DNA of 64,000 nt from Giardia intestinalis. Taxonomy: Eukaryota. A program made the position numbers and the translations under genes. Positions 5,176-61,836 of the stretch are shown here, piece after piece (the first letter of the stretch is position 1; every line of letters begins with the position of its first letter). Where the stretch lies: NCBI GenBank assembly GCA_000002435.2, contig CM018792.1. One strand, given 5' to 3'. The notes beneath the pieces were generated by a model. It did no database searches. It was not told the origin of the DNA and saw only the letters and a program-made list of their open reading frames with translations.

Positions 5176-6993
5176 CTACGCCTTTCCGCGGCAGATGAAC
5201 CACCAACACAAGAAGCCCACGAGGCCCCCAACGACAACAATCACAGCGACGGAGATCCCCGCGATGGCCCCCGTGGAGAGCCCGCCCCTGTTGGCGCCAG
5301 AGGACACACACCTGCCACCCTCCAGCTTGTAGTCGTCCCCGCACTGGCCGCACTTGTTCTCCTCGCTGCACCTGATACACCCGTCGATATTGCAGGCGAT
5401 GCACTTCGTTCCGTCTGTGTCCGGTCTCTGGTCTTTACTGGTACAGGCCTCGCACTTGCCGCCTGCTCCACAGTGCGAGCATCCGTCAACGGTACATGCG
5501 AAGCACCCGCTCCCAGCCAGGTTGGGCTTGTTGTTGCCGCTACACGCTGTGCACGTGGCGGGGGCCATGCCAGGAGCCTCTAGCGCTGCTGGGGCCGTGC
5601 ATGCTGTGCAGCCATATACCCCCACATATGCCTTAGCGGTGCTGCCAGCCCCTATCACTGTGCCAAGGGGGTTCTCGCAGGCCAGGACAGACTGATCAGT
5701 ACTGGATGCCCCCGGGACCAGGAAGTACCGGCCGTTCTCGCTGGGGGCGGTGCACCTCCCTCCCTCGGCAGTCTTGCACATATAGCTACCAGGAGCCTTC
5801 GACACATCATAGCAGCCGCCCATGTACAGGAAGTACCCGGCAGCACACCGGGTGCAGACGCCGTTCTCGCAGGTGTTGTCACCTTTAGTTCCTGTGCAGA
5901 TCCCATCGATGGGGAACGTGGCGGGGTCTCCGCACAGCGAGCAGTACTGGGAGAACGCCCCGGCGCTGTCAACGACGACCGCCCCGCAGGCCCCAGACGT
6001 CCCCCCGCAGGCCGTGGGGTCCTCGCAGGCCTTTGTGCACTTCACCGGATTGGTTCCCTCCTTGCGATAGTTGGACTTGCAATCGGTGCATGTAGGGGTT
6101 AGGCCGCTGTTACATTGGGAGCACCCCTCGATGCCATTGTCGGCTTTACTGTCGCAGGCGAAGCACTTACCAGCAGAGCCGGGTTGTTTCATGAAGAATC
6201 CAGGCTTGCATTTAGTGCACTGATCATTGCCAGCAGCAGAGCATGTAGCACAGTTGGCACCGCAAGCTGTGCATGTATCAGAACCAAAGTATCCGTCGAG
6301 GCAAGCTGAGCAGGTCGGCTTGGCTCCGTTCTTCTTACACGTTTTACAATTAGCAATCCCCTTGTCGTTTGCTTCTGTTCCTGTTGTTGTATCACTGCAT
6401 AATATGCACTTGGTGCTATCATCACTCAGAAAGTGGGATCCGTCGACGTTATCTGTTGCGCACCCAGCATCATCGACGCAAGTGGTTGTCCCATCCAGCT
6501 CTGTCTTCACCTTCTTATTGTTACAGGCGGTGCACTGGGGCTTGCTGACAGTCGTGTTGTACTCACACGCGGTGCAATCTGCTATACCAGACTCCTTGCA
6601 TGTCCTTGTCACAGGGTCAGCATAAGTGTTTCCTTCACATGTAGGTGAACAGGTATTATCGCTTTTCAGATACTTCCCCTCCTTACAGGATGTGCAATGA
6701 TTCGGACCACTTCCACTGCAAGTCAGACAGGACTGATCACACTGATTGCATTCGTTATTCTCTTTATAGTACCCCTCTTGACAGGCAGTGCACGTGGCTG
6801 CCCCCTTATTATTAGTTGGTGCCGTACATGTGGCACAGCCCTCGACTCCCTTCGTCGCGCCATCTCCCACCGTGTCCCAGCAGAGGATGCACTCATTACC
6901 AGGAGTCACTGTTGCAGCCGGGTTCTTGAACAGGCCGTTAGCTGTGTTACAAGCAGTGCACACTCCACTACTGGCCTTTGTGCATATCTCACT
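5176..6993 (-). pseudogene. 5'-truncated variant-specific surface protein (VSP) copy lacking a start codon and signal peptide
   Basis: The ~600-aa frame is packed with CXXC motifs and a GGCY motif (…AAGYFLYMGGCYDVSK…). It has a C-terminal TM helix plus the invariant CRGKA tail (…GFLCWWFICRGKA). The track M at 6961-6963 is GTG. The frame is closed by an in-frame stop at 6994-6996. The first in-frame ATG is ~260 codons in (…GFFMKQ…). Only 109 bp separate it from the stop of the upstream VSP, so there is no room for a signal peptide. Confidence 0.7.
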
Positions 6994-6996
6994 CCA

Positions 6997-7048
6997 CTAT
7001 CACCCTCTATCATCACCCTCTATCACACACTATCACCTTCTATCACAC
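6997..7048. repeat. imperfect ~10-bp tandem repeat (CTATCACNNN x5) at the VSP-VSP junction
   Basis: Read directly: ctatcaccctc / tatcatcaccctc / tatcacacac / tatcaccttc / tatcacacat. It lies between the poly(A) motif of the upstream VSP and the truncated VSP. Confidence 0.6.
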
Positions 7049-7056
7049 ATTGTACA

Positions 7057-7072
7057 GCATTCACTACCTAAG
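7057..7072 (-). promoter_or_regulatory. VSP-type extended polyadenylation signal (ACTTAGGTAGTGAAT)
   Basis: The minus-strand sequence immediately after the TGA stop (7073-7075) of the full-length VSP reads ACTTAGGTAGTGAATGC, a perfect match to ACTYAGRTAGTRAAY. Confidence 0.55.
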
Positions 7073-9049
7073 TCACGCCTTCCCCCTGCAGAGGAACCAC
7101 CAGCAGAGGAAGCCCACGAGGCCCCCCACGACAGCGACCACAGCGACGGAGATCCCCGCGATGGCCCCCGTGGAGAGCCCGCCCCTGTTGACGCTTCCGC
7201 CGGTGTTGTCGCCAGTGCCGTCGCCCATCTCGAGGCACATGAACGCACCGGTGGATGACACCGTGCACTGCCTGCACCCAGCGAGCCCCTCAGAGCACGG
7301 ATTACACTTTGTCCCAGCACTCTGCGGTTTGTAATATCCAGTGCTGCATGTAGCACAGGCGTTAGCGTCGTTAGCAGCCGTGCATGTCTCGCAGCTAAGA
7401 TGGCACCTTTTATTGGAACAATCGCCATTATCAGCCGTTAGACCACTGGCACATTTTGTACATTTTCCTCCCTGCACTGTAGTACACACCTGCTTGCCAG
7501 GCTGTCTATCTGTCTGATAGCAACCACCATCTTTGAGGAAGTAGTTATTTTCACATTGAGTGCATGCTCCATTACTCACCGTAGTGCAAAATCGTGTTCG
7601 CGTATTGGCCGCACAGTTGCCATCCAGTGGTGCCTGTTGAGTGTTCTTGCACTTTGAGCAGTATGCAGTTCCTCCTATTTGGGCCCCACACTCTGCGCAT
7701 CCATCGTTTGCAGGGCTCACGCTGCACTGGTTCATGCACGTGCCCCCATTGGCAGGAGTATCAGCATCTGTATACTGAAGCATCCTCCCAGCAGGACAAG
7801 CCGTACACTTATCAGCGCCCTCACCCTTGCACTCTATGCACGCATCGTTGCACTTCTTGCACTTTCTGTCAGTGTCATTTCCGTAGTAGCCCTTGAGGGT
7901 CGTGCAGTCAGATACGCATTGACTGGTTGGGGTGAGGTAGTACTCAGACAGACACTTTGTACAGACCTCCTTATCGGCACCTTCACCGGTGCACTCCAAA
8001 CAGTGCTCTGTGTTACAGTTACTGATTGGTTGGCATTCAGTCGATTCAGTATTAGGTTGGAGTCCTTCGTTGCACTCGCACATTTGGCTACCCTGCCCGG
8101 TGGCCTTGGGGGTAGAGTTAGCAGGGCAACTAGCAACGCACGACTTTCTGTTGAGACCAAAGATGGTCTTCTTGCCAGTCGTACATGTCTTGCAAACCAC
8201 TCCGTTGGCGCCTTTCTCACAAGTGGTGCAGTCCACCGTCCCTCCTGAAACGCAGGTGTTGCACTCCTTTGCTTCTTCATCAACGTAGTGGGTTGCCGGA
8301 CAACCAGCTGTATCAACACATTCTCCTGAATTACTAGAAGCATCTGTCACTTTAAGATATTCCTTGTCGTTGCCACCAGCTGATTTCAGCTTGCATCGTG
8401 TGCATTTGCTGTTTCCTGCTCCAACACATGTAGCGCAGTTATCATCGTTGCAGGCAGTGCATGCTGTTCCGCCAGAGGCAACAAAGAATCCTTCAAAGCA
8501 CGTCTTGCATGTGGCGGTTTTCCCCAAACGAAGAGCACCAGCAGGATTCTCTATTGTGCACGTCGCACAGTTCTGAACCCCCTTGTTTTCATCTATAGCT
8601 GTGGTTTGATTGCATGCAATACAGGACTCCTTCGTTTTATCGAGAGATTCTGTCGGATTCTTGAAATATCCCGGGCTGCACGCCTCGCAGACCCCTTGAG
8701 TTTGTGACGCCTGCGTGTCCTCGCAAATGAGATTCCCCGGCTCCGTCCCTATCTTGTAACATCCTCCCCTGTGCAGGAAGAAGCCGGCTTTACAAGATGT
8801 ACATGTGCCATCATTCTTTGTTGTACATGCTCCTTCAGCATCCTCGCCTGTAGTTATGCACTTTCCATTGACAAGATGCTCTGCTGCTGTCGAGCACTGG
8901 GAGCAGAAGTTTGAGCCCCCAATCCAGACGTCGCACTTGTCCTGTTTGCATTTCTTTGATTCCGGGTCGCTGGTAGCCACTGTGCATGTTTCTGCCGCAG
9001 CCCATACCACTTGCAGGATGGCGATTCCGAAGATGATTTTCTCGAACAT
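7073..9049 (-). CDS. vsp: variant-specific surface protein (VSP), full length
   Basis: Track ORF 7073..9070 starts with GTG; the first ATG at 9047-9049 gives MFEKIIFGIAILQVVWAAAETC…, a hydrophobic signal peptide. The ectodomain is Cys-rich with many CXXC motifs and a GGCY motif (AGFFLHRGGCYKIG). The C-terminus has a TM helix and the invariant tail …GGLVGFLCWWFLCRGKA. The VSP poly(A) motif follows. Confidence 0.85.
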   Translation of the reverse strand: MFEKIIFGIAILQVVWAAAETCTVATSDPESKKCKQDKCDVWIGGSNFCSQCSTAAEHLVNGKCITTGEDAEGACTTKNDGTCTSCKAGFFLHRGGCYKIGTEPGNLICEDTQASQTQGVCEACSPGYFKNPTESLDKTKESCIACNQTTAIDENKGVQNCATCTIENPAGALRLGKTATCKTCFEGFFVASGGTACTACNDDNCATCVGAGNSKCTRCKLKSAGGNDKEYLKVTDASSNSGECVDTAGCPATHYVDEEAKECNTCVSGGTVDCTTCEKGANGVVCKTCTTGKKTIFGLNRKSCVASCPANSTPKATGQGSQMCECNEGLQPNTESTECQPISNCNTEHCLECTGEGADKEVCTKCLSEYYLTPTSQCVSDCTTLKGYYGNDTDRKCKKCNDACIECKGEGADKCTACPAGRMLQYTDADTPANGGTCMNQCSVSPANDGCAECGAQIGGTAYCSKCKNTQQAPLDGNCAANTRTRFCTTVSNGACTQCENNYFLKDGGCYQTDRQPGKQVCTTVQGGKCTKCASGLTADNGDCSNKRCHLSCETCTAANDANACATCSTGYYKPQSAGTKCNPCSEGLAGCRQCTVSSTGAFMCLEMGDGTGDNTGGSVNRGGLSTGAIAGISVAVVAVVGGLVGFLCWWFLCRGKA

Positions 9050-9446
9050 TGCCGGCAGCCCATAGAGCACGCAACACCAGGCGACGCTGCCACGTGGTGA
9101 GTGAGGATAATGTGCACCTCACAGGCATGCCCCGGTGTAGCGGATCTCTGGTGTCCTAGCGGCCTCTCCTGTGTGTGGCGTCTCTAGGTACCAAGGAGAG
9201 AATGGGCGTTGTGACATCTCAAGAACGGCCCCTCGCACATCACCGGTACCTGCGACAGTAGCCACCACCCCACGAATGGTCCGCTCAGATAGTGAATACG
9301 TCCACTGCTATGAAACTGGACCGATGCTCTTCACAAGAGCTGCCTGGACGGGAAGAAGCGCTGTGCTGTTGGGATTGCCTGTAAGCGCACCCAGAAATCC
9401 CACGAGTAAGTTTCACTCTTGTGGTCGTGTCCGGAGACAAACGTTA

Positions 9447-9468
9447 GTCCCTGATGATATCATCAGGG
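9447..9468. repeat. perfect 22-bp palindrome TCCCTGATGATATCATCAGGGA
   Basis: Read directly; it is self-complementary around a central GATATC. It lies in the 760-bp divergent intergenic region between the VSP (-) and the HCMP (+). Confidence 0.55.
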
Positions 9469-9811
9469 ATCTCTCTTTATTTGTATACCAGGAGTTGCTT
9501 GTATTCATCGGTCGTTTTGTGTAGTATGTGCTCAGACTGAGTGTGTGTCGACCTGCCTCACTTTTTGATCTTCTTTTATGTTGGGTGAAGTGAATCATCA
9601 TCGTCCAAGTAGTATCCGATTTCTTGAATCAAAAAACAGCGAGAATGCCGCTCTACGTGACAGTTCCCATGCTTGACGTTAACTGTACCGGTTGACTACG
9701 CAAGAATCTATGCGAGTCTTATGTTTCCGAGTATTTCTATAACAAAAGTAGTGTGATAGGATTCTCTATTAAATATGGATGCATTAAAAACTTGCTTTCT
9801 CCAGGAGTCTC

Positions 9812-12313
9812 ATGATCGGTTTCGTCTCGCTTCTCCTATGCGGTATTTTCTCAGAATGCACCCAGGATAGCGAGTGTGGCGGCGCCGGGGGTACTTGTGA
9901 TGTCACGATCGGCGGTAAGAAGTACTGCTCCAAGTGCGACGGAGCGCGGGTCCCCGTCAACGGAGTTTGCAGATTGTTGAATGTATCTCGTAGTATATGC
10001 CAAGTTCCATTGAATAGCGCGGGTACTGGCTCTTGTACAGGCTGCATCCGTGACTTCCTCTTCTACAGGGGCGGGTGCTACCGCACGGCATCCCTGATCA
10101 ACGCCATATGCAAGGAGAAGCACATCGTCGAGGAGGGGATGTACTGCGGGGCGTGCGCCATCGAGGGCGACGTCCCGATCGACGGGGTGTGCGTATCAGC
10201 AAGCACAGATAGCTCTGGAAACACGTGCGACAAGGGCGTGTGCACGACATGCGCAAGCGGATACTTCTTCCACTACGGGTCATGCTACAAATTCGGAGGA
10301 TCTCCAGGCAGCACTGTGTGTCCTAAGCCAACTAGCACTACTGGCTCTGTCTGTGATTCTTGCGGGTCGAAGTTCGTCAAGAACCCCAGTGCGAGCTCGT
10401 CTGCCACCTCCTGCCTCGCGTGCTACGGGCTGGACGGGACCCTCTTCTGCGAGCGCTGCCGGATGAACGTGCTCACGAGCGCAGACGTGAAGCCCACTCT
10501 GTGCACACAGTGCAAAATAGGCTACGTGCCCGTGGATGGTCGTTGTGTGTCAACTTACTCTGCCACCTCGGCTCTTGCAGGGTGCTCTACCTATAGCGGT
10601 AATGAGAATACAAAGGGACTTTGCGAAACGTGCTCCTCCGGCTACATGCTCTTCTACGGGAGCTGCTACTCTGTCAACGGCCCCCTCGCCCAGGCCATCT
10701 GCAAGACCGAGAACCAGATCTACCTTGGGGGAAGGGTCTTCTGCAAGAGGTGCGCCCAGACAGACCACTACCCCATCAACGGCTTATGCATTGCTGATAA
10801 GGGATCACATACGTGCGAGGCGGGCATCTGCACAGCATGCGACACCAGCATGACCTCTGTCGACACCTCCAAGGTTTTCCTGTTCTACAACGGCTGCTAT
10901 GATGCAAACTCTGCAATCGGAAAGCTAATATGCCAGGAGGCGTCTAATGGAGCGTGTTCAACTTGCAATACAAACGAGACATCGAATATAATAGCTAATC
11001 CTAATTCTGCAGATGGCCAACCAAAATGTCTTGGATGTTGGGACGAGGCAGCTACTGGGGTGGCCAACTGCGGAGGGTGTGCGGCCGGCACAGACGGCGA
11101 TTCCAAGATCGTCTGTAGCAAGTGCACCGACTCGACGGAGCCCAAAGACAACACGTGCCCTCAGGCCCTCCCGCCCACAACGCCTGAAGGATGCGCCGTC
11201 CAGGGCTGCCAGGCGTGCTCGAAGGACTCCGCTACGACGTGCGACGCCTGCTTCGAGCCTCTCATCATGAAGGAGGACAAGACGAAGTGCTTCGGGAGTT
11301 GCCTGGCGCTGGGCCCGGGCTACTACAACAACTCTGGGATATGCAGCCCATGCATAGAGAACTGTCTCCTTTGTACAGACGGGGCCACGTGCTCCCAGTG
11401 CGCCGAAGGGTACTATCTCGAAGTGTCTGGTGCCGGCTCAACGACAGGAACCTGTAAGGCGTGTGCTACTGGATGCTCGACGTGCGCCAGTGCCGGTGAT
11501 AACCTTTGCTCTACGTGTGCTGTGGGATATTATGCTGCATTTGCTCCACGGCGCGGGGAAACGGGAAAATGCATTCTATGTAATGCCAGTGGGGATGGAT
11601 ATACTGGCGTCGCAAACTGTGCCGTTTGCTATAGTACTACAGGGGAAAGCGGAAATAAAAACGTTGTATGTAATACATGTGATGATGGATACATTAAACA
11701 GCACACAGGTAATACAGTCGTTTGTAACCTTCCGACTCCAGAATGCAATGCCGCAATGTGCTCGGTTTGTGTTGAAAATAACCCAGATCGTTGTGAGCAC
11801 TGCACGACCGGCGCGTACCTCTGCCCGCGGACGGCGACGTGCACGAAGGACTGCGCCAGCTGCGGCGGCTCGATGTACCCCGACGATGACCTCGGGGAGT
11901 GCCAGCCGTGCGACATCGCGAACTGCCGGGTCTGCGCGACGGGGCTCAAGTGCGAGAGCTGCGCGGAGAGCGCCGTCCCCATCTCCCCGGACGTCTACCA
12001 CACGGCGTGCATGGGCTGCAGCGACACCGGGGGCATGGACGGCTGGGTGGGCCTCGCGGGGTGCACGACCTGCGAGCTGACCGACAAGGGCGGCGGGAGC
12101 GTCAACTGCCTCGACCCCGGCTACTACCGGCGGGGCGGGCTCGGCGGGGGAGCAATCGCCGCCATCGTCATCGTCGTCCTCCTCGTCCTGGCCGTCGCCG
12201 GCTTCCTCGTCTGGTGGTTCGTCTTCAGGAGGGGCGGCCGGCCCAAGCGCGGGGCGAAGTACACATCGCTCATGCGGGGCGAGTCCTACGACTACCGCCA
12301 GTCTCTAATATGA
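9812..12313 (+). CDS. high-cysteine membrane protein (HCMP, VSP-like type I membrane protein with a longer cytoplasmic tail)
   Basis: ATG at 9812. Signal peptide MIGFVSLLLCGIFSEC. The ~780-aa ectodomain has repeated modules with CXXC/CXC and GCY motifs (FLFYRGGCY, YFFHYGSCY, YMLFYGSCY, FLFYNGCY). There is a single TM (AIAAIVIVVLLVLAVAGFLVWWFVF) and a 33-aa cytoplasmic tail ending …SYDYRQSLI, not CRGKA. AGTAAAC follows 7 nt after the stop, at 12320-12326. Confidence 0.8.
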   Translation: MIGFVSLLLCGIFSECTQDSECGGAGGTCDVTIGGKKYCSKCDGARVPVNGVCRLLNVSRSICQVPLNSAGTGSCTGCIRDFLFYRGGCYRTASLINAICKEKHIVEEGMYCGACAIEGDVPIDGVCVSASTDSSGNTCDKGVCTTCASGYFFHYGSCYKFGGSPGSTVCPKPTSTTGSVCDSCGSKFVKNPSASSSATSCLACYGLDGTLFCERCRMNVLTSADVKPTLCTQCKIGYVPVDGRCVSTYSATSALAGCSTYSGNENTKGLCETCSSGYMLFYGSCYSVNGPLAQAICKTENQIYLGGRVFCKRCAQTDHYPINGLCIADKGSHTCEAGICTACDTSMTSVDTSKVFLFYNGCYDANSAIGKLICQEASNGACSTCNTNETSNIIANPNSADGQPKCLGCWDEAATGVANCGGCAAGTDGDSKIVCSKCTDSTEPKDNTCPQALPPTTPEGCAVQGCQACSKDSATTCDACFEPLIMKEDKTKCFGSCLALGPGYYNNSGICSPCIENCLLCTDGATCSQCAEGYYLEVSGAGSTTGTCKACATGCSTCASAGDNLCSTCAVGYYAAFAPRRGETGKCILCNASGDGYTGVANCAVCYSTTGESGNKNVVCNTCDDGYIKQHTGNTVVCNLPTPECNAAMCSVCVENNPDRCEHCTTGAYLCPRTATCTKDCASCGGSMYPDDDLGECQPCDIANCRVCATGLKCESCAESAVPISPDVYHTACMGCSDTGGMDGWVGLAGCTTCELTDKGGGSVNCLDPGYYRRGGLGGGAIAAIVIVVLLVLAVAGFLVWWFVFRRGGRPKRGAKYTSLMRGESYDYRQSLI

Positions 12314-13123
12314 TTCCCCAGTAAACGGAGCTATCGCCTGCCGGTGCCTGTCTCTGAACGCGCATATCCCGGAGATGTCGACGGAGCCGAGGAGCCTCCG
12401 CGCCCGCAAGCGCTCCCCCGGAAAGGGCTCGGTGTCCGCCGTCTTCGAGATCGACACGCTGCACTCTGCGGCATCCGACGCGACGCAGGAGAGGCCGTTG
12501 TGGAGCACCACCCGGGAGATCTCGCTGACGTGGACGGACAGCATGGGCCGCAGGATGCACACTCGATGCCTGGCCCTGCTGGCAAAGTCCCTGACCTCGC
12601 AGTTGTAGTACCCCCGGAGCCCGAAGAAGGAGGCCCCGTGGACCCCGGTGATCGCCAGGGTCTCCAGGTCGTCCAGCAGGTGGTGGCCGAGGGCCAGGGC
12701 GTCGTAGCCGCCGGCGGACACAAAGCTCGCCAGTGTTCCGCGGCGGCAGCGAGAGCAGACGCTGCACGCAGACGCCTTCCTGGCCTCCTGCCCCGATGCA
12801 TCCAGGCGGGCGATCTTGGCCGAGACGTCCATCCCAACCACCTGCTGCTCGAACGTCATGGCTCCCTCTGCGGCGTCGTCGATCGATAGCGCACACGGGC
12901 AGAGGCTCCGTATCGTGTCCAGGATGAAGCCGGGTATCTTTGGGTCGAAGGTCACAGGGGTCACTTCCAGCGCCCCCAGGTCTCCTAGGCCGATGGGGTC
13001 AAACAGCCGCTTGATCATAGTAGCTGGAAGGAAGCCCACGCCTCTTCTGAAAGGACCAAAGTCGTCCGGTCTAGCCATCGGGACCAGTGGGTCAAACCGT
13101 TCAGCGTTAGAAGGAAAAGCCAT
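12305..13123 (-). CDS. TtcA/Ncs6(Ctu1)-family tRNA thiolation-like protein; PP-loop ATP-binding motif not recognisable
   Basis: ATG at 13121-13123. Strong similarity to the remembered E. coli TtcA core: CSVCSRCRRGTLASFVSAGGYDALALGHHLDDLETL versus [37 protein letters not shown]. Also FDPKIPGF versus LDQKQPGF, and RPMLSVHVSEI versus RPLAYCREKDI. No SGGKDS motif is found at the expected position, where the sequence reads …DPIGLGDLGALEV…. The gene is very GC-rich and its 3' end overlaps the HCMP stop by 9 bp. Confidence 0.55.
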   Translation of the reverse strand: MAFPSNAERFDPLVPMARPDDFGPFRRGVGFLPATMIKRLFDPIGLGDLGALEVTPVTFDPKIPGFILDTIRSLCPCALSIDDAAEGAMTFEQQVVGMDVSAKIARLDASGQEARKASACSVCSRCRRGTLASFVSAGGYDALALGHHLLDDLETLAITGVHGASFFGLRGYYNCEVRDFASRARHRVCILRPMLSVHVSEISRVVLHNGLSCVASDAAECSVSISKTADTEPFPGERLRARRLLGSVDISGICAFRDRHRQAIAPFTGESY

Positions 13124-13585
13124 TCTCGGGCGTCGCTAGTCTGCTGCTGTGGATCTCAGTGCGTTCCTACGTGGAACGAACCAATTACATGGCCAACGTG
13201 TAGCCACGTCACGCCTCTGGTACGAATATATCTACTGGGAAGGAATATAACGGAGAGTGATGGAAGAACAAGGCTACAATACGCTTGGTGATAGAGTAGA
13301 GAGGACCAGATTACTGGATCTAAAATTAGAAAGTGTAACTCTACGTGGCATCTCCTACTTAACAACCTACCTGACAAAAGTAATGACAGGACCATTTTAC
13401 TTGTTTAGCTGGTTAGACTCACACATACTCCATTAAAGTAGTGTATAATTGTGGTACAAGCCATAAGCAGCACTTATTGATAGCAATCCGTCATCGAGTA
13501 CAATCCAACCTGTACTCCTTATGTCCTTTGCAGAACTCAGCCTATATACAGTTTACTGAGCCAATCCGCTATAAACCTTTTCTGC

Positions 13586-16500
13586 CTACTTCTTTCTGTT
13601 ATGTCTTCTATTTTTAAGATTTGGCGGGATGTGCCCATGCTTCATCATCGCCCGTTTCTCTGCGTGACTGAGCATCTGCTTCTTTGCAATACGCTCGTCT
13701 CTCGTCCGCTTTTGAGTAACGAGTGTCATGCCTGCCTTTAGACGGGTTCTATCTTGTTTGCTGATATGCTTCCCAGTAAGAAGAGGAAGATAGGCATAAG
13801 GATCTGCTTTATTAGCGGTTTGTACATCACCTCCAGCACGCTTTGAACTGAACTCGTGACCTGTGTGCACAACCTTGAGTCTTCCACTGCTGTACTGCTT
13901 TCTCTGATTAATCTTCTTAATTTCAGATAATGTTCTGTTTAAGATGGCGTCGTTCTCTTTAATCTGGGTAAGCTTTTGTATATGTTCTGGCCTCAGACTA
14001 TCCCTCTCAACGGTCTCGTCAAGAAGCATCGCCATCGCCGAGTTGAGTGATTTGCCAAACTTCTTATTGTTTTTGAAAGGATCGTCAGCATCATTCGAAG
14101 AGTCTGGACACGGCTGCTTTTCCTCTAGGTCTATTACCTCTTCGGTTCCGTCAATTATATGCTTATAAATGTCCGCGAAGTCGGCATCATCGTCGCCATA
14201 AGACCTGATTCGCCCATGCATGTCCTCAGGAATTGATAGAGCAACATCCAGGTAATTCGGCAACGTGAACCTCCCTATCATCTGGTCAGAGGCCTTGTGT
14301 CTCAGCTTGGAAAGAACAGCCGAGACCATGCGCCTAGCAGACACGCATGCCTCAGCGGCAGCATCGCGGATAGCCACTAGTATTTCTGGGTCTAGGTTAT
14401 GGATAGGAGTTTCACTATTAGCAACTATATACTCCATCATGTCCTTGATGATTAAGTTGAAGGCCTCCTCATAGAGGTCCTTGGAATAACTGTATCCCAT
14501 GGCGAGGCCAAGTTGAAAGAGGATGTTTTTGACGACGGACCGATATGGAGAAGTCAGCGAGCCAATGACAAGGCGAAGCAACACCCGCGGGATCTCCTCG
14601 GCTATGGAAAGAAGTTCGGACGGTCCTGCTGCTGATATAAAGGCGGAGAAGAAATTCAGTAATCGTTTGGCAGAGTGAGTGGGAAGAGAAAGAGTATATC
14701 TGTAAGAGAATTCTGTTGTTTCTTCACCAGTCTCCGCGTCTGTTGAGGCAACCTTTCGCTTTTCTAGGAATAGGTTAGTCCTAATGTCTGCCAGTAACTG
14801 AGTGGCGATTGTGATAAAGAGCGGGTGGGTACAGTTGAAGTCAGAGATGTTGACGCCCTTTTCCAGAAGAATGTTTAAGTCTTCAACAAGAAGCTTTTTG
14901 ATAACTTCTGTCATTCCAATCATAATTATCTGGAGGAGATATGCATAGTTTGCCCACACGTCAACAGAAGAGTTCTGCGGTGGCTGCAGGCAATCAGTGA
15001 TCTTCTGAACAGCCTCATAAATATCCAGCTTCAGCGAGCCAAGCGACTCATTGTTGCAGCATTGTCTACAGGCCTTTACTGTCGCTGCCTTAATCATTTC
15101 TGATGCCATGTGCCTGACACGCATGTTATTATCACTCAGACAGAGATATATATCACGTGCAAACTCCGAAAGAATGTGAGACGGCTCCAAATTAAATACC
15201 TCTGAAGAGCGGACTATGTCAGCATAAAGTCCAAAGCGATGGCGCTGCAATGCACCACCCCGGAAGGTTTCTGCGCCAGCTGACTCTATGGACGAGATAA
15301 TCGCCTGTGAAAGCTCGGGGTTGTCTTTAGAGGACGCATTCACAAGAAACCGTAAGATTTTATAGTGCAGTTTCTGCGCAGAAATAGTGTGTATAGTGGA
15401 AAGCTTGGAATCCAGCTCGAGAAACACAGGGACTGTCTGGGGACCGAGAGGAGAGAAGTTTGTAGCCGTAATACATCCAGAGAGAATACCATTGAAGACA
15501 TCAAAAAGGCTGGCCTGTGGTCCTGTGCCATCAATAATTCGCTTGATGACATTAGCACAGGCGGTGGATATTAAGGGCTTCTTTGCTAAAGACACTGCTA
15601 GCGGTAACAAAGTTACATAGGGATTGTTAGGAGGAGAGTCTGCAGCCAGCATGCGGTCCAGAAGAGGAGATAACAGCTTTGGAACCAGGAATCCTCCAAC
15701 AAATGAAAGACTAGCCTCAAAGAGACGCAAGTTTTTAATAACAGCGGCAGAAAGCTGAAAGGGCTCCGGCTTGGCAATGAGCTCCATAAGCAAAGTGCAT
15801 GTATCGCCAGTTGAAGAAAGCTCACTAGTAGGACCAGCTCCTTGAGAGGTGGATGATGTTTTGATAATGGACTCAACAAGCTTCGTGACATTAGCTCGTA
15901 GCGTAGAAAAGAACCGGAGAAGGTTGCCTATAGCAGAGCCACACGCATGAAGAGCGCGCTGCTCTGCTTCAGTTGATCCGAATAGGTTATCGATTAATAT
16001 GCTGCAGAAAATATCAACAGAGGTTTTAGTAGGGGCTTCAGCCAAAGCTATTGAGGTGTCCTGTGAATATCCAAGAAGATCGTCTACTACTGGATTGCGT
16101 GTTACCTCTGAGACTATGGCCCAGACCTGATCAAGAAGAATTGAACGCGTTCCTGCCTGCAGTTTTTTAAACGCTGATTGGTTGAGGATTGCTTCAAACA
16201 GATGTGTATAAATGAAGGAGAGGGAGGCTGACTTGCATTTAGAATAGTAGGAAAGAAGCCACAGATCAGTGGCACTTGAGGGAGTCTGAACTAGGTCCAT
16301 CAGCTTACTGGTGCCGTCGTCACTTACTAGTCCGCAGTTGAATGCTTTAAATGCCAACTGCAGATCCATGTGCTTGATGAATGAGGTAATGATGAGGATG
16401 CAAGTGTGATTCTCCGTATGGCGAGCACCTGCAACTAGCGCCGTAAAGAGTCCTTTGAGACCAGCAATAACCTCCTCACACTCTTGTTGTTCATTTTGCT

Positions 16501-17881
16501 TTACAAGGAAGCATCCATCTGCGATTCCAGTAAATCCTGCACCAACCTTTGCGAAAAATGACTCTGCGTTAACGGGGTCTATCGTACTAGTAATGGCACC
16601 TATTGCCTTCTCAAACGCAGGGAGCAAGCGACCTGTTACAATGGCGTAATGTGTGAAGACGGACATGCAGATCAATGAAAGAGACTTTTGAACAACCTCT
16701 GGGTTGGCTCCCATTTTATAGAACAGTTTTAGCTGTTTCAAGAAGATGACGAAGTAGTCGAACAGTTGCTCGATAACCTGAAATGTGCCAGCGCCTGATG
16801 CTGCCTCTAAGATTCTCCTTGAAAGATGAAATGCAACAGTCTCATATATTAGAAGCATGCGGTTCACGATATCCCTATCTATGGGCAGTTCACGGAACGA
16901 CGATTCAATAAGCGACAAAAGGGATGCATCAATCACCAAATCCGATGATAAGATTCCTCCCAACACGTTTAGCGCACTCGCAGACATATCCGGAGCAAAT
17001 AACAGCTGCAGTAGTCTAATAACCAACATGCACCCTGCTGACATTTCCGTATCTTTATTCGAATGGTACACTGCCGGGCCTCCCGAGGCAGCATAGACAA
17101 GGTTTGCGGGGAGAGAAAGCTGCCCATCAGATAGAGATGAGTCATGTGTACGGAGATTATATAGAACAACCTTGGTCACTGCTGTGGTACCTTCTGTAAG
17201 AAGCATGGAGAGGATGGAAGAAATTATCTGTATGCTGCAGTAGCCTGGTGTTCGCGAATTTGTTGAATTGTCAAGATTTTGTCTTGTGGACTCATCAACA
17301 TCCGTATCAGCATCAGAGTCTAACGTATCGGTAGCTACTTTTATATTCTCCTTGATCAGCTCAACTTCATATCGCACGATGATACTCAAAATATCGTGCA
17401 CCAGAGACGCCACTTTGCGACGCCCATCTCCCAGCATTAGAGCCAGAAAGCCAGGCAGTTTGCTTTGAGGTGGAAAGGTGCCACCATCTGTTAAATTAGA
17501 AGCAAACTGCCTCAGCATCTCCAGGTAGAGAACTGTGATAAAGGTCGGTATGTTAGGAGCGCTAAGAAACTCCAGTGTAAAGGACTCTATGCGTGGAAGG
17601 ATAGCAAGAGACGATGCAACTGAGATGTCAGAGAGCATACTTTTAGCCAGAATAAATGGCGGCACAAGAGTTTCCATGGGAGTGAGATTCTTCCAGTCGG
17701 CGATAAAGGTTAGAATAAATGCGAGTACGTGTTCTCTTTTAGGTTCCGTGTCCTTAGAAATGCGGCTCCGCACAGCTGAAAATGCATTATTGCAAAAGAT
17801 TGTGAGAGGCTCTGCAAAGCTAGGATACGTGAGGAGGAATGGATTGGAGAAGGCTCCCGAAACTGAGATGCCCTCGTTCAT
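13586..17881 (-). CDS. large HEAT/ARM-like repeat protein, tentatively RRP12-like (pre-ribosome export factor)
   Basis: Track ORF 13586..17941 starts with GTG; the first ATG is at 17879-17881. The ~1430-aa protein is predicted all alpha-helical. Its C-terminus (…GDVQTANKADPYAYLPLLTGKHISKQ… followed by a Lys/Arg-rich tail) resembles the conserved C-terminal DPYAY(I/W)PL motif plus basic tail that I recall for RRP12 proteins. This rests on memory and is not verified. Confidence 0.35.
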   Translation of the reverse strand: MNEGISVSGAFSNPFLLTYPSFAEPLTIFCNNAFSAVRSRISKDTEPKREHVLAFILTFIADWKNLTPMETLVPPFILAKSMLSDISVASSLAILPRIESFTLEFLSAPNIPTFITVLYLEMLRQFASNLTDGGTFPPQSKLPGFLALMLGDGRRKVASLVHDILSIIVRYEVELIKENIKVATDTLDSDADTDVDESTRQNLDNSTNSRTPGYCSIQIISSILSMLLTEGTTAVTKVVLYNLRTHDSSLSDGQLSLPANLVYAASGGPAVYHSNKDTEMSAGCMLVIRLLQLLFAPDMSASALNVLGGILSSDLVIDASLLSLIESSFRELPIDRDIVNRMLLIYETVAFHLSRRILEAASGAGTFQVIEQLFDYFVIFLKQLKLFYKMGANPEVVQKSLSLICMSVFTHYAIVTGRLLPAFEKAIGAITSTIDPVNAESFFAKVGAGFTGIADGCFLVKQNEQQECEEVIAGLKGLFTALVAGARHTENHTCILIITSFIKHMDLQLAFKAFNCGLVSDDGTSKLMDLVQTPSSATDLWLLSYYSKCKSASLSFIYTHLFEAILNQSAFKKLQAGTRSILLDQVWAIVSEVTRNPVVDDLLGYSQDTSIALAEAPTKTSVDIFCSILIDNLFGSTEAEQRALHACGSAIGNLLRFFSTLRANVTKLVESIIKTSSTSQGAGPTSELSSTGDTCTLLMELIAKPEPFQLSAAVIKNLRLFEASLSFVGGFLVPKLLSPLLDRMLAADSPPNNPYVTLLPLAVSLAKKPLISTACANVIKRIIDGTGPQASLFDVFNGILSGCITATNFSPLGPQTVPVFLELDSKLSTIHTISAQKLHYKILRFLVNASSKDNPELSQAIISSIESAGAETFRGGALQRHRFGLYADIVRSSEVFNLEPSHILSEFARDIYLCLSDNNMRVRHMASEMIKAATVKACRQCCNNESLGSLKLDIYEAVQKITDCLQPPQNSSVDVWANYAYLLQIIMIGMTEVIKKLLVEDLNILLEKGVNISDFNCTHPLFITIATQLLADIRTNLFLEKRKVASTDAETGEETTEFSYRYTLSLPTHSAKRLLNFFSAFISAAGPSELLSIAEEIPRVLLRLVIGSLTSPYRSVVKNILFQLGLAMGYSYSKDLYEEAFNLIIKDMMEYIVANSETPIHNLDPEILVAIRDAAAEACVSARRMVSAVLSKLRHKASDQMIGRFTLPNYLDVALSIPEDMHGRIRSYGDDDADFADIYKHIIDGTEEVIDLEEKQPCPDSSNDADDPFKNNKKFGKSLNSAMAMLLDETVERDSLRPEHIQKLTQIKENDAILNRTLSEIKKINQRKQYSSGRLKVVHTGHEFSSKRAGGDVQTANKADPYAYLPLLTGKHISKQDRTRLKAGMTLVTQKRTRDERIAKKQMLSHAEKRAMMKHGHIPPNLKNRRHNRKK

Positions 17882-18160
17882 AAAGTTATAATTAATTGCA
17901 AAGCAGAATAAATGATGCCTCAAGCTGGGCCACAGAGCCACCCATTCATCTACACCATAGAAGACGAGTTCTCTGTCGGTCGCCTAATATCTCTGAACTA
18001 ATTAAACATAGGTTTACCTCTAGAGTCTTTCGTCACCTTATTGAAAATCTGTTCTTGTTCTTCCACTCTATCCTTAATGGCCAGGATTTCACGGATGAAT
18101 TAGTTCTTAGTGGCGAGCATTTACTTCAGGAAACAAAAAATTGAGAGGGGTCCGCCGTCA

Positions 18161-59772: not shown

Positions 59773-61836
59773 CTTAAAATAAATGCCCTTTGGAGAAATC
59801 CTGACGTTTCCAAGGACGTCCGAACCGTTCTAGAAGAGCGATTTACTCCACCCGCTGGTTACTTCCAGTGCTCTTCCGGGCTGTGCTGCCGGCGGAACCC
59901 AGCAGCCCAGAGTAAACCCCTCATTTTCCTCACACGCTCCGGGACACCAGACTGCTCCATAGGCCGCCGGCCACGCTGGAGTGCCCCGAGGCGGCCCAGG
60001 AGAGTGCGTGTGCTGATAGCTTGTCCGCCAGACCCTCCTAGCAGCAGAGCGCCGTCGCGGCAGGAGAGCATGCCCCTTGCATCGGTCGGTCGGTTGCTGA
60101 GACCCCTGGTGCTCTGTCTGGAGCGGAGACTGCCCTGAGGGCCCTGTACGCTGCTCCCCTGCACCGACTGGCACAGCAGGGGGGCTGGATGCCGAGGGGC
60201 ACCTCCAGAGTCTCGGGTCTCTACAGGACAGGACACACGGCAGGGACATCTGCATGCGGGCCAGGAGTCCTGCTCGGCCCGTCCCTCGGCTGACGCCTTG
60301 GCCCCTCGGGAGCCCTGTCAGCACCACCGAAGGCAAGGACTCTCCAGGAGCGTTGGACTGGGCCCGCATGGAGTGGATGGCCCCACAGCCACTGCACGGG
60401 CCTCTCGGGCAGGGGGTCTCTCTGCCACTGCAATCTGTAGCAGCGTAAGGGTCGCCCCGTGTGCTGCCCTCTTGCCGTGGCGGGGCTTCAGGCATGCCAT
60501 CGGGACTGTCCGACGGTCACCGGTTGGGCCCTGTGTGACAGCAACAGACGAGAAGACTGTCCCACAACGACATGCCCTCGCTGGAGGACTGTCAGCAGGG
60601 CGGGGGAAGCTGTGGCCCACTGGGGGAGTGAACGATCTCAGTGGGTCCAGGCGCACTGCACTGCGGGCCCCGTCGGGCCGGTCTCTGACGGGCGCCGCGA
60701 TCACTCTGCCCGGTCTGGCAGATCACGAGGGGTCTGAGGCCGGTCTGTTGGGAGGAGAACCAGGGCCCTCGCTGATGGTCGAGCAGAGTCACCACAGGGG
60801 GGCATGAGCTCGAGTGAATGAGGGCCCTCTTAGCAGCGCGCATGTCAACCGAGCGAGGAGAACGACATGGCAGACACCAAAGGAGCCATGACCTCCTGAG
60901 CCCTCTGAGGTTTGTACTAGGCTCGCTGGGCTTATCAATCTCAGGCTCTGGTTCGCTCGAGTGAGCACTGCAAGGGTGAGAAGGGAACCTAAATGGAGAT
61001 AAGCCTCCACAAGTGGCGGACAGAGTATCTGTGATCGACACTTGCCACTGATGCTGTCTGGCAACTTGGCTTTGCAGAGGCCCATTGAGTAGGCACTCCA
61101 GGCAGTAACAACGCAATCAGCTAGCCACTGTCTTAGACTGCTCTTGGAGACCTGCAGCGAGGAAAGGCGAAGTCCCTAGAGCTTGTTGATGCAGTGCCAG
61201 AGCTTATGCTCTTCTTCGATGATCTGCTGAGGCTATCTCAAAGGTTCCAAGACTGTGGAGAGGGAAGCTTGATAGTAGGAATTCATAATCACTGCTGCTC
61301 AGGACCCCGTAGGCCCTCCTCTCCAGTCATGGCGAGCTGCTGGGCCCTGAGAACGTCGGAGGGCCTTGCCGATGTGCATGGGCGGTGGGCAAGAGGATCC
61401 CCAACGTATACAGTTCACAGGAGCTGTTTTACTACAGGCTGTCAGGCTTCTTCCCCGACATCACGAGATTTTTGAAGCAGAGGCCCGGCAGGAAGAGGGT
61501 GGTGATAAGATAGCCAGGTTTCCAGCAGTGCAACAGAGAAGACCCTTGCTCTATCAGCGACGACTCGCTTCTGTTTCCGGACACAATCGAGCATTGACTG
61601 AAGTTACTCACGGGATCCTTGGGGTGTGCTCGTAGGCAAGGGTCCTAGCAGCACAACGCTGAAGGTGACTGGTAGATGGAGTGAAGAAGTCCGAAGCCCT
61701 AGTGCCCACCCTGCACTGGTGCCCAGCCGGCTACAACCCCACAATTGAAGTCATCTCTCGTTGGGCACTTGCCACACAAGGCAAGAAGGGCAGAGGGAAC
61801 CCAGGGCGTACAATCTGTGTTTGGTGCGCTATCTGG
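59773..61836. other. ~2.1-kb GC-rich segment without a convincing protein-coding frame
   Basis: Between the HAD gene start and the next ankyrin gene. Only short overlapping ORFs (≤221 aa) on both strands. Their translations are Pro/Gly/Arg/Ser-rich and low-complexity (e.g. MPEAPPRQEGSTRGDPYAATDCSGRETPCPRG…), as expected for non-coding high-GC DNA. Every other intergenic spacer in the window is <800 bp. Confidence 0.4.

Follow-up and report, generated by a model that had tools for sequence, protein, structure and literature searches.

How does a gene named for its PP-loop come to have none? The question is raised by an open reading frame (ORF) of 272 codons, on the minus strand at 12305–13123 of the 64,000-nucleotide stretch of Giardia duodenalis WB (assemblage A; contig CM018792.1) that was analysed here and that we call the window. 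The ORF is annotated 'PP-loop family protein' and is a 100% match to XP_001709625.1. A first-pass annotation, made from the letters alone, described it as a TtcA/Ncs6-like tRNA thiolation protein that has lost its ATP-binding SGGKDS motif, and offered three explanations: a regulatory or scaffold paralogue, a decaying bacterial gene acquired laterally, or a frameshift or assembly error. We find that the ORF is a chimera of a local 41-codon leader and the final 231 codons of a TtcA-like gene. Our overall reading, to which we give a probability of about 0.8, is that it arose by a 5′-truncating partial duplication of an intact TtcA-like gene and is a relic maintained by gene conversion. The real cause, a truncating duplication alongside the neighbouring gene for a high-cysteine membrane protein (HCMP), was absent from the options first offered.

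A truncated copy and its intact parent

Profile and motif evidence bears out the proposed placement of the ORF in the TtcA/TtuA/Ncs6-type group of PP-loop thiolases, which is defined by ATP-dependent adenylation of the target base via the SGGxDS PP-loop (PMC6225789). Among NCBIfam models TtcA ranked first for the window ORF (NF007972; 39.3 bits, cut-off 272), ahead of TilS-N, NcsA and TtuA, and the nearest solved structures in a sequence-profile search were NcsA (6scy, E = 2.5e-20; a [4Fe-4S]-dependent U34 thiolase), TilS and TtuA. The blocks that had been listed as conserved are all present: FDPKIPGF (residues 59–66), CSVCSRCRRG (120–129), RPMLSV (192–197) and a GHH block, the last of which reads ALGHHLLDD and not ALGHHLDD as first written. 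We compared the ORF with its relatives in an alignment of 13 sequences, drawn from Giardia assemblages A, E and B, a fourth Giardia-like lineage, Spironucleus salmonicida, Barthelona and bacterial TtcA-like proteins. Residues C120, C123, C221, R125, R127, R128, H147, H148, D151, E154, R192 and P193 are kept in the window ORF; C120 and C123 are invariant and C221 nearly so, and these three are the putative ligands of a [4Fe-4S] cluster.

The PP-loop itself is missing, as had been noticed. All six frames of 12800–13700 are free of any SGGxDS-like motif, and the ORF scores 26.1 bits with Pfam PF01171, below the gathering score of 27, matching only profile positions 60–162 of 182. In the alignment, SGGKDS stands in one column in all 10 of the full-length relatives, and the truncated copies have unrelated residues there. 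Without the loop, ATP binding and ATP-dependent adenylation are impossible for the ORF, and the earlier view that a protein so written would be catalytically dead seems sound. The ORF lacks the feature that defines the group, and should not be counted as a functional TtcA, TtuA or Ncs6 member.

The motif is intact in a full-length WB paralogue (P0003, XP_001708332.1; 552 aa), found in the 90%-identity cluster of the window protein and called the parent hereafter. Its canonical SGGKDS occupies residues 297–302, within AFSGGKDS; the sequence around the motif runs ...RRVAVAFSGGKDSLCLLLHLSLLSLMARRGLLDPIGLGDLGALEV... (also read as ...RRVAVAFSGGKDSLCLLLHLSLLSLMARRGLLDPIGLGDLGALEVTPVTFDPKIPGF...). 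From DPIGLG to the C-terminus the window ORF is the parent, one residue apart. At the DNA level homology begins exactly at position 13000, which is codon 42 of the ORF and codon 322 of the parent, and continues at 99.6% identity over 727 nt, to the stop codon and past it (window against parent loci L002/L003). Three SNPs, at 12893, 12887 and 12402, tell the copy from the parent. Measured in 100-nt steps, identity between window and parent jumps from 0.28–0.38 to 0.98–1.00 across this position. A tblastn search of the window with the corresponding parent segment gave 99.6% identity over 231 aa (E = 1e-152), and parent residues 1–321 found no match across the whole 64-kb window (best E = 5.4). 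DNA upstream of 13000 is orthologous to the syntenic spacer in P15, of assemblage E, and not to the parent. The copy is thus homologous to the full-length gene from an abrupt start inside the coding sequence, with unrelated DNA upstream.

The two parts of the chimera meet at this breakpoint. The duplicated 3′ segment (12305–13000, minus strand; parent codons 322–552 and the stop) retains the CxxC pair and third cysteine, the GHH..D..E block and the RP motif, and is without strand β1, the PP-loop and helix α1 because the copy is truncated at the breakpoint, not because the motif has decayed. The leader (13001–13123, minus strand) is local sequence with no kinship to the parent gene (forced-alignment identity 0.28–0.38) and is probably not genuine coding sequence. 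Two details of the first-pass annotation need correction here. It had put the loss at 15–20 residues; all 321 N-terminal residues of the parent, β1, PP-loop and α1 included, are absent, and 41 unrelated codons stand in their place. It had also taken DPIGLGDLGALEV (residues 42–54) for the site of the PP-loop; in the parent this is a Giardia-specific loop 19 residues downstream of the intact SGGKDS, between helix α1 and strand β2. DPIGLGDLG was therefore rejected as a degenerate PP-loop, since the intact parent holds both SGGKDS and that loop.

The parent itself fits best as a divergent member of the Ncs6/TtuA group, TtcA-like and of long form, and is a predicted thiolase. Parent proteins pass the PF01171 gathering score (P0003, 37.2 bits; P0016, 38.0; P0018, 40.3). 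With the TtcA model NF007972 the parent scores 52.7–55.4 bits, and the bacterial TtcA-like proteins P0022, P0023 and P0025 score 190–209, against the cut-off of 272; the NcsA model NF047749 (cut-off 500 bits) gives 18.9 for the window ORF and 17.8 for the parent, and the TtcA and TilS models score higher. An N-terminal extension of ~290 aa can be aligned among Giardia, Spironucleus salmonicida (409 aa) and Barthelona (564 aa), and the Spironucleus homologue is annotated 'tRNA 2-thiocytidine biosynthesis protein'. Bacterial relatives are ~22–27% identical in the family alignment and 32–39% over local matches. One apparent relative, P0019 (1813 aa, E = 3e-25), was rejected as spurious, being a HECT ubiquitin ligase that contains a low-complexity tandem repeat.

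The parent gene is carried by assemblages A, B and E of Giardia as well as by the fourth lineage, and Spironucleus and Barthelona have relatives of the long form. The gene is vertically inherited and under purifying selection, as judged from a dN/dS of 0.11–0.23 in all comparisons. The loci that carry it (L003 822–2480; L004 6001–7662; L006 6001–7659; L008 5001–6665; L007 3001–4230) hold an uncharacterised long-form TtcA-like gene of 552–554 aa, and in the four Giardia lineages it always lies 8–11 nt downstream of a protein kinase gene. A literature search on Giardia PP-loop, TtcA, Ncs6, Ctu1 and 2-thiocytidine genes and on these protein accessions found no paper on these genes.

The window copy has counterparts elsewhere. 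A second WB truncated copy (P0004, XP_001707151.1) lies on another chromosome-scale contig (1.54 Mb); its leader is the same 41 residues with one substitution, and its shared part differs from the window copy at four amino acids (S to L, R to M, R to K, and A to V, where V is the residue of the parent), which points to a secondary duplication of the already-truncated locus. DH (AII) and P15 each have one truncated and one full-length copy. Truncated and full-length copies are 99.6% identical in DNA within assemblage A and 99.3% within E, whereas identity between the assemblages is ~89%. A one-codon deletion (TGSY for TGESY) is shared by both the truncated and the full DH copies and found in neither WB copy. 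The truncated copies are closer to the parent in their own genome than to their orthologue, which is concerted evolution by ectopic gene conversion.

These observations suggest the following history. A segmental duplication would have copied the convergent HCMP gene and, with it, the terminal 231 codons of the thiolase gene, and the copy would have landed at the edge of a VSP/HCMP cluster, beside a gene of 1451 aa. With the breakpoint after helix α1, at parent codon 322, β1, the PP-loop and α1 would never have been copied, and 41 fortuitous upstream codons would complete the ORF. The duplication preceded the split of assemblages A and E; ectopic conversion with the parent would since have held within-genome identity at 99.3–99.6%, and GC-biased conversion would have driven GC content at third codon positions (GC3) of the shared tract from ~0.45 to ~0.8–0.86 in both parent and copy.

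The fragment as a gene

We consider the ORF to be, in all probability, a non-functional relic whose open frame is kept passively as a selected parent converts it. Because conversion overwrites the shared part, nothing about the fragment's own constraint can be read there. The leader is free of this difficulty, and it appears to evolve neutrally, with a dN/dS of 0.88 for M16–F41 and 1.13 for codons 1–41, although these values rest on 26–41 codons only. The start codon is not conserved: P15 has GCA in place of the ATG at 13123, with in-frame stops further upstream, and the first Met common to both copies is at 13078. An AT-rich initiator context, as is found upstream of most window genes, is missing at all three candidate ATGs: the last 20 nt have an AT content of 0.35–0.45 and a longest A/T run of 2–3, against medians of 0.55 and 6 at the gene starts of the window. 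Finally, the truncated and full copies of assemblage E differ by five nonsynonymous changes and no synonymous ones, and two of the changes in the P15 truncated copy (CRRG to CRRR and GHH to CHH) strike invariant or near-invariant residues.

It could be argued that the truncated copies are nevertheless functional paralogues without a PP-loop, serving as an Fe-S- or tRNA-binding subunit, or as a scaffold, regulator or dominant-negative partner of the full-length enzyme, much as the non-catalytic Ncs2/Ctu2 partners Ncs6/Ctu1. The frame is unbroken in both WB copies and in those of DH and P15; the cysteines C120, C123 and C221 and the GHH and RP motifs are retained; and the Ncs6 of eukaryotes is accompanied by a partner whose role extends beyond catalysis (PMC6225789). 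However, conversion from a selected parent accounts for the integrity of the ORF without selection on the copy. The apparently neutral leader, the unconserved start codon, the missing initiator context and the changes in the P15 copy all argue against such a role, and the loss of β1 and α1 from the core sheet of a Rossmann-like fold would probably destabilise it. An AlphaFold2 model of the ORF, computed from the 13-sequence alignment, is too poor to support a fold search (mean pLDDT 48.3, pTM 0.42; leader pLDDT 32–41). We regard functional paralogues of this kind as unlikely. As for the earlier suggestion of a regulatory or scaffold paralogue of a real Ctu1/Ncs6, the intact paralogue is TtcA-like and not a Ctu1/Ncs6, and the regulatory or scaffold role is disfavoured.

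On present analysis it is improbable, too, that the truncated copies, of which WB has two and P15 one, are expressed and that their products, though devoid of a PP-loop, partner the full-length enzyme and still bind an Fe-S cluster or tRNA. Were this so, they would constitute a newly born non-catalytic subunit like Ncs2/Ctu2, only as old as the A/E lineage, and gene conversion would keep its interface matched to the catalytic paralogue.

Age of the duplication and its GC-rich tract

On the other side of the fragment lies the convergent HCMP gene (9812–12313, plus strand), which encodes an 833-aa protein of the VSP family (PF03302, 143.9 bits). As first reported, the 3′ end of the fragment overlaps the HCMP stop, by 9 nt, and a candidate HCMP poly(A) signal, AGTAAAC at 12320–12326 (plus strand), lies 7 nt past that stop, inside the last codons of the fragment. 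The layout recurs at the parent locus of P15, where a convergent 833-aa VSP-family gene also overlaps the thiolase gene by 9 nt; P15 locus L004 6958–10181 aligns to window 13006–9786 at 78.9%. Assemblage B and the fourth lineage (L008) also have a conserved HCMP-type tail downstream of the parent. We infer from these alignments that window block 9786–13000 copies the HCMP gene and the 3′-terminal 696 nt of the thiolase gene, and that the HCMP gene probably shared in the original duplication.

Within this block, a near-identical tract of ~1.25 kb (11750–13000; 99–100% identity to the parent locus, GC 0.66–0.75) takes in the thiolase fragment together with ~565 nt at the 3′ end of the HCMP gene, and is interpreted as the current gene-conversion tract. 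In a patch of the HCMP gene of ~350 nt (11400–11750), identity to the HCMP gene of the parent locus falls to 55–65%, in a local GC trough of 0.39–0.50; on its flanks it is 97–100%, including 97–99% beyond 11400. The pattern looks like a mosaic of conversion tracts of the sort typical among surface-protein genes.

The placement of the duplication before the A/E split has one competitor, independent recent duplications in A and E in place of a single old event followed by conversion. The P15 copy ends at its stop codon without an HCMP gene (homology to the window stops 4 nt past it), and the extents of the blocks differ, as separate events might produce. Against this, the P15 truncated copy (L001) has the same breakpoint (window positions 13000 and 13006; parent codon 322) and occupies the same site, adjoining a gene of 1431 aa that is the orthologue of the window's 1451-aa gene, with a leader and spacer that are homologous to those of the window (77% and 70% identity, respectively). 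The shared site and breakpoint and the homologous leader and spacer place the duplication before the split. Moreover, a reverse-transcriptase element abuts the P15 copy and could explain the loss of the HCMP gene there. Independent events are, on this evidence, very unlikely. The element in question is a reverse-transcriptase remnant (RVT_1, 46.7 bits) directly after the truncated copy, at L001 5545–6835 on the minus strand.

The unusual GC-richness that drew attention to the ORF is real: its GC content is 0.64 and its GC3 0.85 for codons 42–272, against a window background of ~0.47. In fine-scale profiles of GC and identity, the GC island at 11801–13000 coincides with the near-identical tract. 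The parent shows the same property in the same codons. Its GC3 rises from 0.486 in codons 1–321 to 0.861 in codons 322–552 in assemblage A (Fisher p = 8e-21) and from 0.445 to 0.780 in E (p = 1.7e-15), whereas the corresponding values are 0.431 and 0.526 in B and 0.343 and 0.382 in the fourth lineage. A maximum-likelihood change-point in GC3 falls at codon 320 in A (2-lnL interval 319–330) and at codon 322 in E (315–339), and the same analysis detects no comparable step in B or the fourth lineage.

We polarised third-position changes by taking as ancestral the sites at which B and the fourth lineage agree. Within the tract, changes from weak (A/T) to strong (G/C) bases outnumber the reverse by 44:5 in A and 41:9 in E; for the 5′ part the counts are 40:18 and 30:18, respectively. 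Synonymous divergence of the parent between A and E is also lower in codons 322–552 (dS 0.29) than in the 5′ part (0.49), as expected if both lineages were driven in parallel towards third-position G/C. Giardia gene-conversion tracts have been reported as GC-enriched and VSP-enriched (PMC12669663), and GC-biased gene conversion has been invoked for Giardia rDNA (PMC10123126). The GC3 step at the breakpoint, seen in A and E only, argues for GC-biased gene conversion over a bacterial origin, and together with the substitution bias it makes this the probable mechanism.

The alternative that was first proposed for the composition, a bacterial-type TtcA acquired laterally and decaying with the GC content of its donor genome, has in its favour that the best family model is the bacterial TtcA and that the ORF is far richer in GC than its surroundings. 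Yet the ORF is a copy of a vertically inherited Giardia gene, evolving under constraint, whose 5′ part has an ordinary GC3 (0.45–0.49) and whose orthologues in B and the fourth lineage are ordinary in the very same codons, the high GC being confined to the duplicated tract of A and E. A donor's composition is rejected as the cause of the high GC by these outgroup values and by the position of the change-point, where the GC3 step coincides with the duplication breakpoint. Spironucleus and Barthelona have long-form members with the same N-terminal extension, and this, like the low identity to the nearest bacterial sequences, speaks against lateral acquisition as well; we hold such an acquisition to be extremely unlikely. 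An ancient transfer of the parent into metamonads may have occurred, but would be irrelevant to the loss of the PP-loop.

That a frameshift, mis-assembly or mis-called start hides a real PP-loop is scarcely credible: although high GC yields long ORFs in all six frames and repeats are prone to assembly error, no frame holds the motif and no part of the window matches parent residues 1–321, the DNA upstream of 13000 has its orthologue in the P15 syntenic spacer and no similarity to the 5′ part of the parent gene, and the identical truncated junction is found in independent WB, DH and P15 assemblies and in several Logan/ENA assemblies.

Several points nevertheless weigh against reading the ORF as a conversion-maintained relic of an old duplication. 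Besides the brevity of the leader, the ORF is open in every isolate seen (WB with two copies, DH and P15), and its three putative Fe-S cysteines are retained, so that a function without ATP binding may be possible; conversion from the parent masks selection, or its lack, on the shared part. HCMP genes as a family are rich in GC, and the GC signal could partly spill over from conversion between HCMP genes. The absence of a truncated copy in B is judged by protein-cluster membership alone (11 members, all full-length or partial full-length), and that in the fourth lineage is likewise inferred and not read from a syntenic locus. In P15 the fragment is followed by the retroelement and not by an HCMP gene, so that the latter was either part of the original duplication or a later addition in the A lineage.

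Surroundings, implications and comparable systems

A non-coding spacer of 462 nt (13124–13585) lies between the fragment and the 1451-aa gene upstream of it; assemblages A and E are 70% identical here, and the spacer marks the syntenic site of insertion. It is far longer than most intergenic gaps of the window, which are often <100 nt, and holds an AGTAAAC poly(A) signal of the 1451-aa gene, near the stop codon of that gene. The 1451-aa gene itself (13586–17941, minus strand) has no Pfam domain and is 86.7% identical in DNA to its P15 counterpart; a word-index protein search with its C-terminal 504 residues returned 0 matches. Beyond the HCMP gene lie two more VSP-family genes (PF03302), both on the minus strand, at 5176–6963 (120.7 bits) and 7073–9070 (269.6 bits). 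They adjoin the HCMP gene, which puts the fragment at the edge of a three-gene cluster of cysteine-rich surface proteins (5176–12313). A second GC-rich island at 59800–61100 (GC 0.65 at 60001–61000) contains only short overlapping ORFs and has no Pfam match, a 221-aa ORF there being of low complexity and rich in Pro, Gly and Arg, and no Rfam match; an Rfam scan of the whole window at gathering thresholds gave no matches either.

For annotation, the consequence is that two of the three WB genes named 'PP-loop family protein' are fragments that have no PP-loop, and should be flagged as partial duplicates. To infer from these fragments a 'dead' or regulatory Giardia thiolase would be mistaken. 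A truncated duplicate is an ordinary kind of object, and this one was already in the databases, under a misleading name. What the locus adds is a clean case of concerted evolution and GC-biased conversion with its boundary inside a coding sequence. It amounts to a natural experiment, in which GC3 goes from ~0.45 to ~0.85 within two codons of the breakpoint in the lineages that bear the duplicate, and not in the two in which no duplicate was detected. The case offers gene-scale evidence for what appears to be GC-biased ectopic conversion in Giardia, and illustrates how VSP/HCMP duplications may drag neighbouring housekeeping sequence into the process; it bears in this way on the debate over recombination, conversion and asexuality in Giardia (PMC12669663). 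The intact parent raises a question of its own, namely which tRNA thiolation it would carry out in a eukaryote.

Among known proteins, TtcA is the closest in curated terms, its model (NF007972) being the best-scoring one for both fragment and parent. Bacterial TtcA-like proteins have in common with them the CSxCSRxRRG block with its CxxC pair, the third cysteine, the GHH..D..E and RP motifs and an FDPxxPGF-like strand. The parent has SGGKDS, and the window ORF is without the PP-loop, β1 and α1; both fall far below the equivalog cut-off (39 and 53 bits for fragment and parent, against 272). The parent differs further in its N-terminal extension of ~290 aa, found in metamonad homologues only, and in the Giardia-specific loop (DPIGLGDLGALE). 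Ncs2/Ctu2, the non-catalytic PP-loop-family partner of Ncs6/Ctu1, is an earlier example of a thiolase-family protein that acts next to a catalytic paralogue in a role extending beyond catalysis (PMC6225789), but it is ancient, full-length and independently evolving, whereas the window ORF is a fragment of recent origin whose sequence does not evolve independently.

With the relics of partial duplication known elsewhere, the fragment shares an abrupt start of homology, the absence of the essential N-terminal part and a fortuitous ATG that creates an annotated ORF; here it would have hitch-hiked with a neighbour belonging to the expanding HCMP/VSP family. It is unusual among them in having stayed open and more than 99% identical to its parent since before the A/E split, as a result of continuing gene conversion. 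As in the concerted evolution of rDNA and multigene families, a paralogue resembles its partner in the same genome more closely than its orthologue in another. In common with other systems of GC-biased conversion, the locus has a strong excess of synonymous weak-to-strong changes confined to the shared tract, and the tract adjoins a VSP-family gene; it differs from them in that the boundary of the tract lies inside a housekeeping-type gene, where GC3 passes from ~0.45 to ~0.85 at a known breakpoint.

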